DNA of 64,000 bases from Escherichia coli. Its GTDB lineage: Bacteria > Pseudomonadota > Gammaproteobacteria > Enterobacterales > Enterobacteriaceae. How positions within the stretch are numbered: position 1 is the stretch's first letter; each line of letters starts with the position of its first letter. The translations under genes were made by a program, and so were the position numbers. Below the pieces are notes generated by a model. That model did no database searches. It saw nothing but the letters and a program-made list of their open reading frames with translations, and was not told where the DNA came from. The stretch lies in NCBI RefSeq assembly GCF_030384885.1, contig NZ_CP128613.1; one strand, written 5' to 3'. This document shows, piece by piece, positions 22,650 to 30,575 of the stretch.

Positions 22650-22687
22650 AGTGAATTCATACTGCCGGGAGCTCCGGCAGTAATCAA

Positions 22688-23452
22688 TCAAAAATTAAAT
22701 TTGATGGAGTAGATTATCGCATCCTGGTAAAAATCTTCGCCCAGTTTGTCATCCGCATAACGATACTGAATCCCTGTGGTGATGTGTGAAGTTGCATTCC
22801 ACCAAAGTGCGACGGCACCATTCAGACCTTCTTTGCCGCCATTACCTGCCGCGTAGGTGGCATCACGATCAAACTCGTACTCGTTCCAGTTGGTGAGGGT
22901 GAATTTCTCACTGCCCAGCATAAAGCTGTAACCTGCAACCCAACCGGCGACATAACCGTTATCGCCGGTATAATAGGTTTGGTCTGTATAGCGTTTTGCA
23001 AAGAACGGTTTGAACCACCAACCGCTGCCGGTGAAATTGTAGCCGATCCCGTAAAGGAACATATCGTCATGGAAATTCACACGATTCGCAGAACCGTAGG
23101 TGCCATACGCATGCAAGTAGAGATTAAATCCGGTGTCACCCAGGTAAATACGGTTGGTATTTTTAAATGTATAACGCTGCTCGCTACCCTGTTTATCATG
23201 ACGATCATTATAAAAGTTTTCCCAGTCGAAGAACCCGTACATTTCTCCCCAACTAAAGTTAGCGCCGCCTTCCAGTTCCAGATATCCAAAATCATCTTTG
23301 TGTGATTTGGTCGACGATTTCTCAGTGGTTCTGCTAGTCCAGTCAAGATAATGAATACCTATATCAGCAAAACCGCCTTTAAATTCTGCATGGGATACTG
23401 CTGGTATCGCCAATACAGAAGAGAGTGTCAGAGTAAAAAGATGTTTTTTCAT
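22688..23452 (-). CDS. yfeN: Outer-membrane beta-barrel protein (Tsx/OmpK-like)
   Basis: 254-aa ORF with signal peptide, aromatic-rich, C-terminal Phe; coordinates taken from track. Confidence 0.65.
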   Translation of the reverse strand: MKKHLFTLTLSSVLAIPAVSHAEFKGGFADIGIHYLDWTSRTTEKSSTKSHKDDFGYLELEGGANFSWGEMYGFFDWENFYNDRHDKQGSEQRYTFKNTNRIYLGDTGFNLYLHAYGTYGSANRVNFHDDMFLYGIGYNFTGSGWWFKPFFAKRYTDQTYYTGDNGYVAGWVAGYSFMLGSEKFTLTNWNEYEFDRDATYAAGNGGKEGLNGAVALWWNATSHITTGIQYRYADDKLGEDFYQDAIIYSIKFNF

Positions 23453-23700
23453 AGCATAATTCCCTATGCCGATCGTTATTAGTTGATTGCTTAATAAAAA
23501 GGTTGATTAAAAGCGGCATATTGTTAATGCAAGGGAAAGGAGAGTACCAATACAGTTTTTTCAGCCTATTAATAGTGAAAAAATATAAATATATCGATAT
23601 CGAATAACTATCGGATACATGAAAAAAGTGTATTGGTATGAGGTAGGGCAATCTCGTTATAAAAAGGCGTTAGATTCCACCCTACAAAAAAAGGATATAT

Positions 23701-24534
23701 ATGTATCAGGCTCAGTTTTCTCATAACCCACTGTATTGCGTAGATATTATCAAGACTTATAAACCTGATTTCACGCCACGAGTGGCCTTTATTTTAGGTT
23801 CCGGGCTGGGCGCGCTGGCCGATCAGATTGAGAACGCGGTCGCAATTTCCTACGAAAAGCTGCCTGGGTTCCCGGTAAGTACCGTACACGGTCATGCGGG
23901 TGAGCTGGTGCTGGGTTATCTCCAGGGGGTGCCAGTGGCGTGCATGAAAGGTCGCGGACATTTCTACGAAGGTCGTGGGATGACCATCATGACGGATGCA
24001 ATCCGTACCTTTAAGTTGCTGGGCTGCGAGTTGCTGTTCTGCACCAATGCGGCTGGCTCACTGCGTCCTGAAGTGGGGGCCGGCAGTCTGGTCGCATTGA
24101 AAGATCACATCAACACCATGCCGGGAACGCCGATGGTGGGTCTTAATGATGAACGTTTTGGTGAGCGCTTCTTCTCGCTGGCGAATGCCTACGATGCGGA
24201 ATACCGCGCACTGTTACAAAAAGTGGCGAAAGAAGAGGGGTTCCCTCTGACGGAGGGCGTGTTCGTCTCGTATCCGGGGCCGAATTTCGAGACTGCGGCG
24301 GAAATTCGCATGATGCAAATTATTGGTGGGGATGTTGTTGGTATGTCTGTGGTGCCTGAGGTTATTTCAGCTCGCCATTGCGAACTTAAAGTCGTTGCGG
24401 TCTCTGCGATTACCAACATGGCGGAAGGTCTGAGTGACGTGAAGCTTTCTCATGCCCAAACGCTGGCAGCAGCGGAACTCTCAAAGCAAAACTTTATTAA
24501 TCTTATTTGCGGCTTTCTGCGCAAAATTGCCTGA
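23701..24534 (+). CDS. xapA: Xanthosine phosphorylase (purine nucleoside phosphorylase II)
   Basis: 277-aa PNP-family ORF recognised as XapA. Confidence 0.9.
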   Translation: MYQAQFSHNPLYCVDIIKTYKPDFTPRVAFILGSGLGALADQIENAVAISYEKLPGFPVSTVHGHAGELVLGYLQGVPVACMKGRGHFYEGRGMTIMTDAIRTFKLLGCELLFCTNAAGSLRPEVGAGSLVALKDHINTMPGTPMVGLNDERFGERFFSLANAYDAEYRALLQKVAKEEGFPLTEGVFVSYPGPNFETAAEIRMMQIIGGDVVGMSVVPEVISARHCELKVVAVSAITNMAEGLSDVKLSHAQTLAAAELSKQNFINLICGFLRKIA

Positions 24535-24594
24535 GTAAAACAACAATAAACGGCCTCACTGAGTGAGGCCATATGATGCGACAAGGAAACGATT

Positions 24595-25851
24595 ATGAGC
24601 ATCGCTTTGCGCTTAAAGGTAATGTCTTTTTTGCAATATTTTATCTGGGGGAGCTGGCTGGTTACCCTCGGTTCTTACATGATTAATACCCTTCATTTCA
24701 CCGGCGCTAATGTTGGCATGGTTTACAGTTCCAAAGGGATCGCCGCGATTATTATGCCTGGTATAATGGGGATCATCGCAGACAAATGGCTGCGTGCAGA
24801 ACGTGCATACATGCTGTGTCACCTGGTGTGTGCAGGCGTACTTTTTTATGCGGCATCCGTAACTGATCCGGATATGATGTTTTGGGTGATGTTAGTCAAT
24901 GCGATGGCGTTTATGCCGACTATTGCGTTATCGAACAGCGTCTCTTATTCCTGTCTTGCCCAGGCAGGGCTTGACCCGGTGACCGCTTTCCCGCCCATTC
25001 GCGTTTTTGGTACGGTGGGGTTCATTGTCGCCATGTGGGCAGTAAGCCTGCTGCATCTGGAATTGAGTAGTCTGCAACTGTATATCGCGTCCGGTGCGTC
25101 ATTGCTGCTGTCGGCTTATGCGCTGACTTTGCCGAAGATTCCGGTTGCGGAGAAAAAAGCGACTACATCGCTTGCCAGCAAGCTGGGTCTGGATGCCTTC
25201 GTGCTGTTTAAAAATCCACGCATGGCTATCTTTTTCCTCTTCGCCATGATGCTGGGTGCGGTGCTGCAAATTACCAACGTTTTTGGCAACCCGTTCCTGC
25301 ATGATTTCGCCCGTAATCCTGAGTTTGCTGATAGCTTCGTGGTGAAATATCCGTCCATTTTACTGTCAGTTTCACAGATGGCTGAAGTCGGTTTCATTCT
25401 GACGATACCGTTCTTTTTGAAGCGTTTCGGTATTAAAACCGTCATGCTGATGAGTATGGTGGCGTGGACGCTGCGCTTTGGCTTCTTTGCCTATGGCGAT
25501 CCATCACCAACCGGGTTTATTTTGCTGTTGCTGTCGATGATTGTTTACGGTTGTGCATTCGATTTCTTCAATATTTCTGGTTCGGTCTTTGTCGAACAGG
25601 AAGTTGATTCCAGCATTCGTGCCAGCGCCCAGGGCCTTTTTATGACGATGGTAAATGGCGTCGGCGCATGGGTTGGCTCGATTCTGAGCGGTATGGCAGT
25701 GGATTACTTCTCGGTGGATGGCGTAAAAGATTGGCATACCATTTGGCTGATGTTTGCAGGGTATGCTCTTTTCCTCGCAGTGATATTTTTCTTTGGGTTT
25801 AAATATAACCATGACCCTGAAAAGATAACGCATCGTTCAGTTACACATTAA
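24595..25851 (+). CDS. xapB: Xanthosine permease (MFS nucleoside:H+ symporter)
   Basis: 418-aa 12-TM ORF downstream of xapA. Confidence 0.9.
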   Translation: MSIALRLKVMSFLQYFIWGSWLVTLGSYMINTLHFTGANVGMVYSSKGIAAIIMPGIMGIIADKWLRAERAYMLCHLVCAGVLFYAASVTDPDMMFWVMLVNAMAFMPTIALSNSVSYSCLAQAGLDPVTAFPPIRVFGTVGFIVAMWAVSLLHLELSSLQLYIASGASLLLSAYALTLPKIPVAEKKATTSLASKLGLDAFVLFKNPRMAIFFLFAMMLGAVLQITNVFGNPFLHDFARNPEFADSFVVKYPSILLSVSQMAEVGFILTIPFFLKRFGIKTVMLMSMVAWTLRFGFFAYGDPSPTGFILLLLSMIVYGCAFDFFNISGSVFVEQEVDSSIRASAQGLFMTMVNGVGAWVGSILSGMAVDYFSVDGVKDWHTIWLMFAGYALFLAVIFFFGFKYNHDPEKITHRSVTH

Positions 25852-25903
25852 AAGGATTCGCAGCTCTGTTCCTTGGGGCTGCTTTTATGATAAAGGTTAA
25901 TTA

Positions 25904-26062
25904 GTGAAAGATATTTTATTTTCTTCTGGCGTTGGTTTTGGCATTGGTGCTTTGTTTACAATCGTGCGATTACCTATTCCTGTTCCAAATGTATTGCCGG
26001 GTATATTATCCATCGTGTTTATGTATGTCGGATATCTGGTGGTGAAATACTTTATGCCATGA
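25904..26062 (+). CDS. Small hydrophobic protein, XapX-like (52 aa, GTG start)
   Basis: My own translation: MKDILFSSGVGFGIGALFTIVRLPIPVPNVLPGILSIVFMYVGYLVVKYFMP*; below the 60-aa cutoff of the track; aagg about 8 nt upstream; I recall a XapX-domain family of small membrane proteins next to xapB. Confidence 0.45.
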   Translation: MKDILFSSGVGFGIGALFTIVRLPIPVPNVLPGILSIVFMYVGYLVVKYFMP

Positions 26063-26102
26063 TAATTTAATACGATGTATTTTTTATATGGAGCACTTAA
26101 TT

Positions 26103-26987
26103 ATGGAACGCGTATATAGAACAGATCTTAAGTTGCTCCGTTATTTTCTTGCCGTAGCGGAAGAGTTGCATTTTGGTCGCGCAGCAGCGCGTTTAAATAT
26201 GTCTCAGCCTCCGCTCAGTATTCATATTAAAGAGCTGGAAAATCAACTCGGCACGCAGCTTTTTATTCGCCATTCGCGCAGCGTCGTACTGACACACGCG
26301 GGCAAAATCTTGATGGAAGAATCGCGTCGATTGCTGGTGAATGCAAATAATATATTGGCTCGGGTTGAACAAATAGGTCGGGGAGAAGCAGGGCGGATTG
26401 AACTCGGGGTTGTGGGAACGGCAATGTGGGGACGGATGCGCCCGGTTATGCGGCGATTCCTTAGAGAAAATCCTAACGTTGAAGTTCTGTTTCGCGAAAA
26501 GATGCCCGCGATGCAAATGGCCTTGCTGGAACGCCGCGAACTTGATGCCGGGATCTGGCGAATGGCGACAGAACCACCGACTGGTTTTACCAGCTTACGG
26601 TTGCATGAATCGGCGTTTCTGGTGGCGATGCCTGAAGAGCATCATCTCTCATCATTTTCCACCGTCCCGCTGGAAGCGCTACGTGACGAGTATTTCGTTA
26701 CAATGCCGCCCGTGTACACTGACTGGGATTTTTTGCAGCGAGTTTGCCAGCAGGTGGGATTTTCACCGGTTGTTATTCGCGAAGTTAATGAACCGCAAAC
26801 GGTACTCGCCATGGTCAGTATGGGTATTGGTATCACATTGATAGCGGACAGCTACGCGCAGATGAACTGGCCCGGTGTCATATTCCGTCCGCTCAAAGAA
26901 CGCATCCCGGCAGACTTATATATTGTTTATGAAACGCAGCAGGTGACGCCCGCGCTGGTTAAACTGCTGGCGGCGTTGGCGCAGTAG
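26103..26987 (+). CDS. xapR: LysR-family activator of xapAB
   Basis: Track ORF trimmed to MERVYRTDLKLLRYF... giving 294 aa. Confidence 0.85.
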   Translation: MERVYRTDLKLLRYFLAVAEELHFGRAAARLNMSQPPLSIHIKELENQLGTQLFIRHSRSVVLTHAGKILMEESRRLLVNANNILARVEQIGRGEAGRIELGVVGTAMWGRMRPVMRRFLRENPNVEVLFREKMPAMQMALLERRELDAGIWRMATEPPTGFTSLRLHESAFLVAMPEEHHLSSFSTVPLEALRDEYFVTMPPVYTDWDFLQRVCQQVGFSPVVIREVNEPQTVLAMVSMGIGITLIADSYAQMNWPGVIFRPLKERIPADLYIVYETQQVTPALVKLLAALAQ

Positions 26988-27017
26988 ATGAGAGGCACGG
27001 GAACTGCCGGACATAGT

Positions 27018-27044
27018 TGGTCTGATAAGCGAAGCGCATCAGGC
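27018..27044. repeat. REP-like palindrome
   Basis: ctgataagcgaagcgcatcag palindromic sequence typical of REP elements. Confidence 0.4.
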
Positions 27045-27057
27045 AATTTCGCAAATT

Positions 27058-27114
27058 GCAGATAGCAAAAAAGCGCCTTTAGGGCGCTTTTTTACATTGG
27101 TGGGTCGTGCAGGA
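27058..27114. repeat. 57-bp direct repeat copy 1 (terminator hairpin plus 17-nt 3' end of tRNA-Lys)
   Basis: Identical to 27214..27270; contains aaaaaagcgcctttagggcgctttttt and tggtgggtcgtgcagga. Confidence 0.8.
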
Positions 27115-27213
27115 TGACTCGCTTCGCTCGCCCTTCGGGCCGTCGCCGCGAGCGGCTCCGTTGTTTCGCTGCGCTCAACTCGAACCTGCTGCAGGTTCGA
27201 ATCTTTGAGTATC

Positions 27214-27270
27214 GCAGATAGCAAAAAAGCGCCTTTAGGGCGCTTTTTTACATTGGTGGGTCGTGCAGGA
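27214..27270. repeat. 57-bp direct repeat copy 2 (overlaps the genuine lysV 3' end and its terminator)
   Basis: Exact 57/57 identity with 27058..27114 by direct comparison. Confidence 0.8.
27223..27250 (-). terminator. Rho-independent terminator of the valU-valX-valY-lysV operon
   Basis: On minus strand gcgcc-ctaaa-ggcgc hairpin followed by tttttt immediately after lysV CCA. Confidence 0.7.
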
Positions 27271-27329
27271 TTCGAACCTGCGACCAATTGATTAAAAGTC
27301 AACTGCTCTACCAACTGAGCTAACGACCC
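27254..27329 (-). tRNA. lysV: tRNA-Lys (UUU)
   Basis: Reverse complement reads GGGTCGTTAGCTCAGTTGGTAGAGCAGTTGACTTTTAATCAATTGGTCGCAGGTTCGAATCCTGCACGACCCACCA. Confidence 0.9.
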
Positions 27330-27333
27330 GAAG

Positions 27334-27409
27334 TGGTGGGTGATGACGGGATCGAACCGCCGACCCCCTCCTTGTAAGGGAGGTGCTCTCCCAGCTGAGC
27401 TAATCACCC
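27334..27409 (-). tRNA. valY: tRNA-Val (UAC)
   Basis: Reverse complement reads GGGTGATTAGCTCAGCTGGGAGAGCACCTCCCTTACAAGGAGGGGGTCGGCGGTTCGATCCCGTCATCACCCACCA; 4 nt from lysV. Confidence 0.9.
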
Positions 27410-27455
27410 ACTTCGGTACTTCACATTTTTACAAGAAATCTAGCTGGCGAGAAAG

Positions 27456-27531
27456 TGGTGGGTGATGACGGGATCGAACCGCCGACCCCCTCCTTGTAAG
27501 GGAGGTGCTCTCCCAGCTGAGCTAATCACCC
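27456..27531 (-). tRNA. valX: tRNA-Val (UAC)
   Basis: Second identical tRNA-Val copy. Confidence 0.9.
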
Positions 27532-27574: not shown

Positions 27575-27650
27575 TGGTGGGTGATGACGGGATCGAACCG
27601 CCGACCCCCTCCTTGTAAGGGAGGTGCTCTCCCAGCTGAGCTAATCACCC
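27575..27650 (-). tRNA. valU: tRNA-Val (UAC)
   Basis: Third identical tRNA-Val copy, first gene of the operon. Confidence 0.9.
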
Positions 27651-27908
27651 CCGCTGTGTGGAGTCGCATTATAGGGAGAGTTCAAAATGAGTCAACGCAT
27701 TTTCTAAAGAAATTGTTCGTTCGTCGTAAATTTAAGCAAGATGATCGCAAAACAGACCGTGTTGCGCAATTTCTCAACGAAAACAATAATGCATCATGTA
27801 GCAACCCGAACTACATTGAGGAATCAGGCGGGAGTGATAGAATATCGCCCACTCAATTTTTCCAGGATTTGCCGGTTGTCGGCATCTTTCTAAACGTAAG
27901 GCCATTTC

Positions 27909-30128: not shown

Positions 30129-30348
30129 AACAATTCCCTGAATGTATGTAGGTCTATTAGCGGTTCATTTTATAACACCACTTTACAGGAAACCGTGACA
30201 TGAATAACTACTGAATGCGAGCGGTTTTCCAAAATTGTTCATTTGCCTGATTTTTCAGCGATTGAAACTACACGCTGCAATTTGCCGTTGACACATTCGG
30301 GCGGAATTCATATGATGCCGCCCGTCAACTCGACAAGCTTTACGTGAT

Positions 30349-30424
<76 letters not shown>

Positions 30425-30463
30425 AATTTTGCACCCAGCAAATTTGGTACGTAAACGACTCGT

Positions 30464-30539
<76 letters not shown>

Positions 30540-30546
30540 AATTTCA

Positions 30547-30575
30547 AACCCTCGCTGTAAAGCGGGGGTTTTTTG
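30547..30575 (+). terminator. Terminator-like hairpin after alaW
   Basis: ccctcgc-tgtaaa-gcggggg followed by tttttt. Confidence 0.5.

Follow-up and report, generated by a model that had tools for sequence, protein, structure and literature searches.

In the 64,000-nucleotide stretch of Escherichia coli DNA that was analysed (the window), the tRNA-Lys(UUU) gene lysV stands 3' of three tRNA-Val(UAC) genes. The names valU, valX, valY and lysV were assigned by position in K-12. Directly downstream of lysV there is a repetitive element that belongs to the tRNA-linked repeats (TLRs, RtT family in Rfam), with xapR as neighbour on one side and valY on the other, and the lysV and xapR units are convergent. 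The promoter of the valU operon sits just upstream of the first tRNA-Val on the minus strand and is the sole evident source of transcripts able to reach the lysV element. The features of the locus are as follows.

27668..27695, minus strand: sigma-70-like promoter of the valU-valX-valY-lysV operon, TTGACT-16-TATAAT, with 11 of 12 consensus matches
27575-27650, 27456-27531 and 27334-27409, minus strand: three tRNA-Val(UAC) genes, the upstream members of the operon
27254-27329, minus strand: lysV, tRNA-Lys(UUU), found by ARAGORN and Rfam (79.2 bits)
27214..27271, minus strand: proximal copy of the 58-bp repeat, made up of the 3' 18 nt of lysV (27254-27271) and a 40-nt trailer with T1
27223..27249, both strands: T1, a bidirectional intrinsic terminator hairpin directly after lysV, A6-GCGCC-loop-GGCGC-T6, recognised by eye and by folding
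27116..27213, minus strand: TLR-specific segment of 98 bp with, in the tRNA sense, a linker, an inverted T-arm, the direct 5' half of the T-stem and conserved hairpins
27098..27223, minus strand: match to Rfam RF00391 (RtT RNA), 51.6 bits, a stretch labelled 'RtT sRNA' by PGAP elsewhere
27179..27203, minus strand: family-conserved P hairpin, in which the inverted T-arm GAUUCGAACCUGC pairs with the direct T-arm 5' half AGCAGGUUCGAG
27127..27146, minus strand: conserved 20-nt core GCGACGGCCCGAAGGGCGAG (pattern GCRACGRCCCGWAGGGYGAR), containing the invariant CCC-GAA-GGG hairpin
27058..27115, minus strand: distal copy of the 58-bp repeat, made up of an 18-nt copy of the tRNA-Lys 3' end (27098-27115) and a trailer with T2
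27067-27093, both strands: T2, a terminator whose 27-mer is identical to T1

Direct sequence comparison gives an exact identity of 58 bp between 27058-27115 and 27214-27271, and the DNA between the two copies is 98 bp long (27116-27213). The original prediction had described an exact direct repeat at 27058..27114 and 27214..27270, and the identity holds on re-comparison, but the repeat extends one base further (to 27115 and 27271) than the 57 bp first reported. The part belonging to tRNA-Lys was correctly recognised as its 3' end but is 18 nt long and not 17, and the insert, said to be 99 bp (27115..27213), is present but 98 bp. The repeat thus consists of the last 18 nt of tRNA-Lys (ATCCTGCACGACCCACCA in the tRNA sense) and a 40-nt trailer with the terminator. 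The 18-mer TGGTGGGTCGTGCAGGAT is found at 27098-27115 and 27254-27271 with 0 mismatches, and these are its only two occurrences in the 64-kb window when up to three mismatches are allowed, against 0.09 expected. An inexact repeat search gives a slightly longer match of 61 nt at 98% (27055-27115 and 27211-27271, period 156) with one mismatch. Chance cannot account for an exact 58-mer that recurs after 156 bp.

The trailer of each copy holds AAAAAAGCGCC-TTTAG-GGCGCTTTTTT (27067-27093 and 27223-27249), and the terminator hairpin with its arms folds at -19.1 kcal/mol. Because T1 and T2 are built up by an A-tract, a GC hairpin and a T-tract, they could act as terminators in both directions. A terminator scan reported neither of them because the extension of the stem absorbed the A/T arms. 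Both of the strong palindromes previously noticed in the insert were located: cgctcgc/gcgagcg at 27125-27131 and 27148-27154, and cgaacctgc/tgcaggttcg at 27181-27199. The second had been said to consist of T-arm sequence of tRNA-Lys running both ways, which agrees with the finding that the real T-arm at 27269-27281 recurs inverted, with all 13 nt matching, at 27191-27203. This palindrome is the P hairpin of the TLR family.

The RtT model RF00391 matches over model positions 1-130 of 130, with a score (51.6 bits) that is modestly above the gathering score of 45 and an E-value of 1.3e-9 when 213 nt are searched and 4e-7 for the whole window. The match starts 30 nt downstream of lysV on the same strand. 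The hallmark of TLRs is that their last 18-19 bp are the same as those closing the tRNA or rRNA gene upstream (PMC8144298), and the lysV element is closed by an 18-nt copy of the 3' end of its upstream tRNA. In an alignment with 34 homologues the element shares the core GCGACGGCCCGAAGGGCGAG and the hairpins P, Ha, Hb and Hc, but it does not preserve the outer helix. The 521-bp query (window 26900-27420) matches E. coli AST215 with 100% identity, and the PGAP annotation of that strain gives the order xapR, 'RtT sRNA', tRNA-Lys, three tRNA-Val and gltX. The label 'RtT sRNA' is placed by PGAP at this spot in thousands of E. coli genomes. The same arrangement is found in K-12 MG1655, with a lysV-xapR spacer of 264 nt and an RtT match of 47.3 bits, and there the element is without annotation in NC_000913.3. 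Further RtT matches in K-12 are situated in the lysT operon (five) and at tyrT (four). The feature is an already-known TLR of the RtT family after lysV, and it is already labelled by routine annotation. Two fallback suggestions of the original prediction fit well with this, namely a small structured RNA, since the element belongs to the Rfam RtT family, and a degenerate tRNA fragment, which is essentially right since its two arms are tRNA-derived.

TLRs were first seen by Egan and Landy in 1978, and Rudd reported 22 TLRs at ten K-12 loci in 1999 (both as cited in PMC8144298). The type example is rttR, which belongs to the 178-bp repeats of tyrT-tyrV (Egan and Landy 1978; Bosl and Kersten 1991; Rudd 1999, per PMC8144298). 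An early phenotype claim for RtT has been withdrawn, and no function has been established for any TLR of a tRNA operon (PMC8144298). A delta-22-TLR strain has been built, and the strain table includes an 'rIV' deletion at ~2.5194 Mb (PMC8144298), a position near lysV in older MG1655 numbering; the supplement coordinates, as machine-read, contain a typo (2519426-2591521). Judged by its name and position, 'rIV' is probably rlV and probably this lysV element. A literature search pairing lysV with xapR found nothing, and a literature match to a CoCoNuT preprint was a false lead.

The leading idea of the original prediction was a footprint of integrase-mediated insertion or a scar after excision. 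In this view lysV would once have been the target of an integrase that brought in an island, attL and attR would survive as the two copies of the tRNA 3' end, and the 98 bp would be the leftover of a deletion. T-loop-type att sites are characterised by a duplicated tRNA 3' end beginning in the T-loop, and this is the geometry of the lysV repeat, which resembles the att direct repeats of islands and prophages in this respect. The presence or absence of the adjacent xapRBA block in different strains also speaks for an inserted island. However, the core of an att site is normally inside the 3' part of the tRNA, whereas 40 of the 58 bp of the lysV repeat lie beyond the tRNA and include the operon terminator. 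The intervening DNA also differs from that between attL and attR in that it is a conserved member of a multi-locus family found behind many tRNA and 5S genes. The TLR core is found after 5S rRNA genes as well (Pseudocitrobacter; PMC8144298). Such genes are not known to be integrase targets.

Searches for remains of a mobile element gave a consistent picture. No integrase gene or remnant was found between or beside the repeats in the window, neither an integrase nor an island nor other foreign DNA was found between the repeats in spread samples of 5426 E. coli genomes, where 0, 1 or 2 tandem units were the only alleles seen and rare alleles may have escaped, and the 64-kb window holds no further copy of the tRNA 3' end (up to three mismatches) able to bound the xap block. 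Phage records gave no real match, the three hits being a Salmonella chromosomal scaffold and two unannotated records shorter than 2 kb. Among the matches in plasmid records, 34 of 35 are labelled non-mobilizable and many are megabases long, and they are read as misfiled chromosomes. With a repeat reaching 40 bp past the tRNA, no integrase, no island allele in the samples and homology to a family, the integrase interpretation is abandoned as extremely improbable.

The pattern of the 20-nt core, GCRACGRCCCGWAGGGYGAR, was derived by comparing the window with the lysT and tyrT loci of K-12. A scan of species-representative genomes for this core rendered at least 120 stretches, and the listed matches include Enterobacterales, Orbales, some Alteromonadales, Vibrionales and Oceanospirillales. 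Another 15-20 or so of the listed matches, in GC-rich genomes outside the Gammaproteobacteria, look like chance, with ~17 expected in 298 Gb, and were ignored. There were 101 listed matches with an upstream tRNA on the same strand in the flanking DNA, and in 88 of them the last 18 nt of that tRNA, with at most one mismatch, return 11-18 nt later. Among these 88 the upstream tRNA is most often Lys-UUU (39 instances), followed by Tyr-GUA (28), Arg-ACG (14) and Pro-UGG (4), with one instance each of Pro-CGG, Arg-CCG and Ser-UGA. A 5S-linked TLR in Pseudocitrobacter (L088) has the same core and closes with the 3' end of 5S.

Read in the tRNA sense, the long form of the element opens with a 5' arm complementary to the 3' strand of the tRNA T-stem and acceptor. 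This arm is followed by GAGAAC (TTCGAAC in the window copy), an inverted T-stem, the direct 5' half of the T-stem and GGTTCGAG. The hairpins Ha, Hb, Hc and Hd come next, and the element ends with CGAGTMATCC and the tRNA 3' end. Among the listed matches, terminal Lys and Pro TLRs have a copy of their own species-specific terminator on either side, as found in Klebsiella, Pantoea, Erwinia, Citrobacter, Leclercia, Hafnia and Gilliamella. In Pantoea and Klebsiella three units follow one another, again with a period of 156 nt. Bracketed TLRs in so many genera indicate that the layout at lysV is the norm of the family and not a local accident.

The presence of the same core behind seven tRNA species and 5S can also be taken as a sign of a self-propagating element, or of a tRNA pseudogene with an insertion, in which the core inserts or recombines at the universal T-loop sequence GGTTCGAATCC. 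Insertion at this sequence would place the T-arm of the host tRNA on both sides of each copy, and the element does read as the T-stem 5' half with GGTTCGA, the core, and then ATCC with the T-stem 3' half, acceptor and CCA. There are also tRNA-Tyr-like bodies in Citrobacter and Kosakonia with the core exactly in the T-loop (L023, L025, L073 and L103), but these chimeras are equally explained by deletion between the T-arm of the tRNA and the partial T-arm of a downstream TLR, and the 5S-linked copies have no T-loop. Moreover, the core has no associated transposase or integrase and was not found on phages or true plasmids, and the variation seen within E. coli consists only of changes in tandem copy number at fixed loci. 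A module that moves by itself is for these reasons quite unlikely.

The structure of the element was compared in an alignment of 35 long-form members (A2), the window copy included. The closing pair of Ha is GC, CG or UA in 18, 8 and 8 sequences, with exchanges in 16 sequences, and four of the five Ha pairs have changes on both sides. Hb (ACGUUGC/GCAACG) shows exchanges of U-A to C-G, while Hc (CCC-GAA-GGG) is invariant in the alignment. The P hairpin (helix 2) has 93% of its cells paired across the 35 members. The partner of the 5' arm is the tRNA-like 3' end. This arm varies with the identity of the tRNA, and 5 of its 10 pairs have changes on both sides. The TLRs linked to tRNA-Arg(ACG) have AUCUUCC/GGGAAGAU in Hafnia and AUCCUCC/GGGAGGAU in Enterobacteriaceae. 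Overall, 90% of the cells are paired compared with 34-45% when the partners are slid; the shuffle control for the alignment does not preserve relatedness. G-U pairs favour the tRNA-sense strand, for instance as U-G in 28 sequences at columns 41:124. These core hairpins argue for some structural constraint at the level of the family. The complementarity and covariation of the tRNA-derived arms could instead reflect the origin of the element and not selection on the RNA.

The window copy is a weak representative of this structure. Its outer helix, between the 5' arm and the tRNA-like 3' end, is largely broken, as in its Enterobacteriaceae relatives, and Hd is minimal. The Rfam consensus structure fits the window copy poorly in the outer helix. 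RNAalifold gives an alternative closure by a T-stem-like helix, which is invariant so that no covariation signal is possible. Single-sequence folds of the two strands exceed shuffled sequences slightly and to a similar degree (z -1.9 and -2.2). The folding of both strands suggested earlier as a check, at only ~2 SD from shuffles, settles neither the structure nor the strand, for which the family alignment was required. The fold of 214 nt has a z of -6.5, dominated by the two identical terminators pairing with each other. A 28-codon Arg-rich open reading frame with a TTG start, in a frame shared with 'tpr' of K-12, was treated as a by-product of the GC-rich core and not as a gene.

Alleles of lysV with 0, 1 or 2 tandem 156-bp units are found among E. 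coli strains. FUJ80154 and strain 105 have no unit and only a single 58-mer, the window and strain E6 have one unit, and SW071618 has two tandem units. A near-identical unit with its terminator is situated behind lysQ, the last gene of the lysT operon, which adjoins nadA, in MS145-7 and K-12. When lysV was aligned from five loci together with lysQ from one, all allele junctions proved precise and in register with the 58-bp repeat. The locus is a tandem array with a period of 156 bp, and its alleles differ by whole units.

Counts in 5426 complete E. coli genomes show how common these alleles are. At least one unit at lysV is present in 2309 genomes (~43%) and absent in ~57%, and a unit at lysQ is present in 2474 (~46%). 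The 98-bp body is found anywhere in 3242 genomes, with 5149 copies in total and 1-5 per carrier genome. By arithmetic, ~1540 genomes have the unit at both lysV and lysQ and ~2180 at neither. The unit is therefore a common presence/absence and copy-number polymorphism with 0-5 copies per genome. Comparison of strains, which had been proposed as a check for an island at lysV, does reveal polymorphism at this site, but it concerns the copy number of tandem units and not the presence or absence of an island.

The xapRBA block beside lysV is itself present in some strains and absent in others. Alleles with 0 units and with 1 unit are each found on both flank types, with and without xap, so that the unit must repeatedly have been gained or lost, or moved by recombination. 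Since the identical bidirectional terminator is present in both copies, with one facing lysV and the other xapR, the arrangement might be taken as no more than a doubled 'fail-safe' terminator that separates lysV from the convergent xapR unit, where the DNA in between is only filler. This is very unlikely, considering that the supposed filler belongs to a conserved family whose hairpins covary, that the same arrangement exists without xapR in strain E6 and behind lysQ next to nadA, and that strains with zero copies manage with a single terminator.

A tandem array of TLR units suggests how the alleles may have arisen. Each unit is built up by the 98-bp TLR body, the 18-nt copy of the tRNA-Lys 3' end and the 40-nt terminator trailer, and the real 3' end of lysV with its terminator is the first, partial unit. 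Slippage and unequal exchange are well-established behaviour of closely spaced direct repeats. From the structures of the alleles, we infer that slippage or unequal recombination between the 58-bp direct repeats is the most likely way in which units are lost and gained, and that gene conversion most likely swaps them with the near-identical lysQ unit. Related genera widely share the T1-TLR-T2 layout, and for this reason the presence of the unit is probably ancestral and the alleles with 0 units are probably deletions.

Transcription from the valU promoter is expected to stop mostly at T1. An element enclosed by two identical bidirectional terminators would be transcribed only by read-through of T1, and such a transcript would carry the TLR and end at T2, which would also insulate the element from xapR. 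Because the 3' end and trailer of the element copy those of lysV, the enzymes that process the tRNA 3' end, through cleavage by RNase E followed by exonucleolytic trimming, would release a discrete RNA, predicted to be hairpin-rich, ~116-126 nt long and ending in CCA. The strong terminators on both sides may mean that the lysV copy is hardly transcribed.

The lysV element resembles the TLRs of tyrT-tyrV, including rttR, in following a tRNA gene directly and on the same strand, in ending with an 18-nt copy of the 3' end of that tRNA, and in sharing the core GCRACGRCCCGWAGGGYGAR, the hairpin layout and variable tandem arrays. It differs from them in having arms specific for tRNA-Lys and not for tRNA-Tyr, a degenerate outer helix and a minimal Hd, and a tandem G-A/A-G mismatch and two extra pairs in Hb. 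Another difference is that the 156-bp lysV unit includes the operon terminator, so that the TLR comes after the terminator and not inside the transcript.

The TLRs rrA, rrB and rrF are found between the terminators T1 and T2 of rrnA, rrnB and rrnD (PMC8144298). They are made by read-through, their 3' end has been mapped to a point 3 nt beyond the 18-mer repeat, and the repeated 3' end has been proposed to direct RNase E (PMC8144298). The lysV TLR is similarly placed between two terminators (T1 27223-27249, T2 27067-27093), and it closes with a repeat of the 18 nt that end the stable RNA upstream of it. Its core is also that of the 5S-linked TLR of Pseudocitrobacter. In contrast to rrA, rrB and rrF, the lysV element is linked to a tRNA and not to 5S.

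RNAs of the rrn TLRs have been detected and bind Hfq and CsrA in vitro, whereas TLRs in tRNA operons are predicted non-binders (PMC8144298). A lysV TLR produced by read-through could in the same way be a true trans-acting sRNA, working as a regulator or protein sponge like RrA, RrB and RrF with Hfq and CsrA. The T1-TLR-T2 layout is as in rrnB (PMC8144298), the core is deeply conserved with covarying hairpins, and PGAP uses the label 'sRNA'. However, the lysV copy is absent in ~57% of the E. coli genomes and the helices of the family are at their weakest in the window copy. In addition, the 19 TLRs of tRNA operons scored <0.01 as CsrA binders and the earlier RtT phenotype was retracted (PMC8144298). 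A regulatory role in trans is on this basis considered unlikely. A different parallel is 3'ETS-leuZ (PMC8144298), which the lysV element resembles as a by-product of the 3' trailer of a tRNA operon that could persist as a small RNA. Unlike the lysV element, 3'ETS-leuZ is upstream of its terminator, has a demonstrated sponge function, has no copy of a tRNA 3' end and does not belong to a repeat family.

The explanation that best accounts for these observations, and in which we have high confidence, is an RtT-family TLR attached to lysV, with tandem units that probably recombine, a predicted read-through trailer and a copy that looks dispensable. The lysV element is most likely a dispensable trailer transcribed by terminator read-through and probably trimmed in the manner of the tRNA, and the lysV copy probably has little or no cellular role. 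Its dispensability is indicated by its frequent absence, its eroded helices and the construction of the delta-22-TLR strain. Since ~57% of the genomes have no unit at lysV and the delta-22-TLR strain could be built, any function would be non-essential.

The importance for the window itself is small, because the element is a known and already labelled family member, and the reading as an island scar can be dropped. The polymorphism of the unit at lysV and lysQ can, on the other hand, confuse alignment or assembly around these tRNA operons. For the family, TLRs are still without an established function nearly 50 years after their discovery. Their arms consist of the direct 3' end and the inverted T-arm of the upstream stable-RNA gene, and are listed from Enterobacterales to Orbales and Oceanospirillales. 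One tentative and rather unlikely reading is that the TLR core is not just filler of the operon but a conserved structured module whose arms match its stable-RNA gene, through either a copy-and-retarget mechanism or an RNA function. If true, it would mean an unrecognised mechanism for copying and retargeting at the conserved T-loop sequence, or an RNA that works by pairing with or mimicking the 3' half of the neighbouring tRNA, for example by luring away or guiding the enzymes that mature 3' ends, or by sensing terminator read-through. The family-wide pattern of the same core, host-specific arms, covarying hairpins and, in many genera, terminator-bracketed units defines concrete tests.

The lysV unit of the window differs from most E. 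coli copies at position 27187 (column ~159 of alignment A1), where it reads GGTTCGAG rather than GGTTTGAG, and its version of the 98-bp body of the tRNA-linked repeat (TLR) was matched with at least 99% identity in only 336 of 3243 matching records. The following features lie inside and beside this TLR in the window:

27092-27178, minus strand: 28-codon arginine-rich ORF MSAAKQRSRSRRRPEGRAKRVILHDPPM with a TTG start, traversing the TLR core
27018-27046: REP-type palindrome tgcctgatgcgcttcgcttatcag (minus-strand reading), flanked by terminator T2 and the stop codon of xapR (26987)
~22650-27052: xapR-xapB-xapA block adjoining lysV, which also holds a DUF1427 ORF and a 254-aa ORF
22688-23452: the 254-aa ORF within the xap block, taken to be yfeN

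The 28-codon ORF shares its reading frame with tpr, the ORF annotated as 'protamine-like' in the K-12 tyrT TLR, and RPEGR occurs in both. The ORF probably arises only as a by-product of the high GC content of the TLR core.

Comparison of the window with strains 105 and E6 shows that some E. coli lack the xapR-xapB-xapA block near lysV and have a 342-bp FlxA-like gene separating yfeR from lysV. The homology of these strains to the window stops at about 27047-27052, just 3-8 nt past the distal copy of the 58-bp direct repeat. The xap block is not bounded by a further copy of the tRNA 3' end.

Immediately past gltX, strain 105 has a truncated IS200/IS605 tnpA together with a TnpB (InsQ) gene (L005 6236-7877); both are missing at that site in strain E6, where gltX is directly followed by yfeD. 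Elsewhere in the window, the tandem pair of tRNA-Ala(GGC) genes at 30348-30551 has a common 89-nt repeat (97%) reaching 13 nt beyond each tRNA, and no RtT-type element was detected at this pair.

Other genera display several variants of the TLR. Long forms follow tRNA-Arg(CCG) in the Oceanospirillales Amphritea and Neptuniibacter (L014, L054, L130), with 5' arms matching that tRNA and decayed 3' copies (6-8 mismatches or indels). An Alcanivoracaceae MAG (L028 7200-7700) has two tandem 156-nt units directly 5' of a tRNA-Ser(GGA) gene, each built up by a tRNA-Ser-like 5' fragment and a TLR core in a layout lacking the terminal tRNA 3' end. In Citrobacter and Kosakonia, the TLR core is placed exactly in the T-loop of tRNA-Tyr-like bodies:

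L023 415-434, minus strand
L025 9889-9908, minus strand
L073 1059-1078, minus strand
L103 offset 2778 of the reverse complement, minus strand

These bodies have an altered D-arm, the anticodon GCA and a decayed 3' end. They represent either recombinants between a tRNA and a TLR or tRNA pseudogenes bearing an insertion.

Within E. coli, a TLR follows each tRNA-Lys gene of the lysT operon, which was compared in K-12 and at the lysQ locus of MS145-7 (L004):

L007 262-1516: K-12 lysT-valT-lysW-valZ-lysY-lysZ-lysQ

Four short-form TLRs constitute spacers between the tRNAs, and a long form is found behind lysQ. The near-identity of this long form and the lysV unit, which extends to the terminator, suggests gene conversion between the ends of the lysV and lysT operons.
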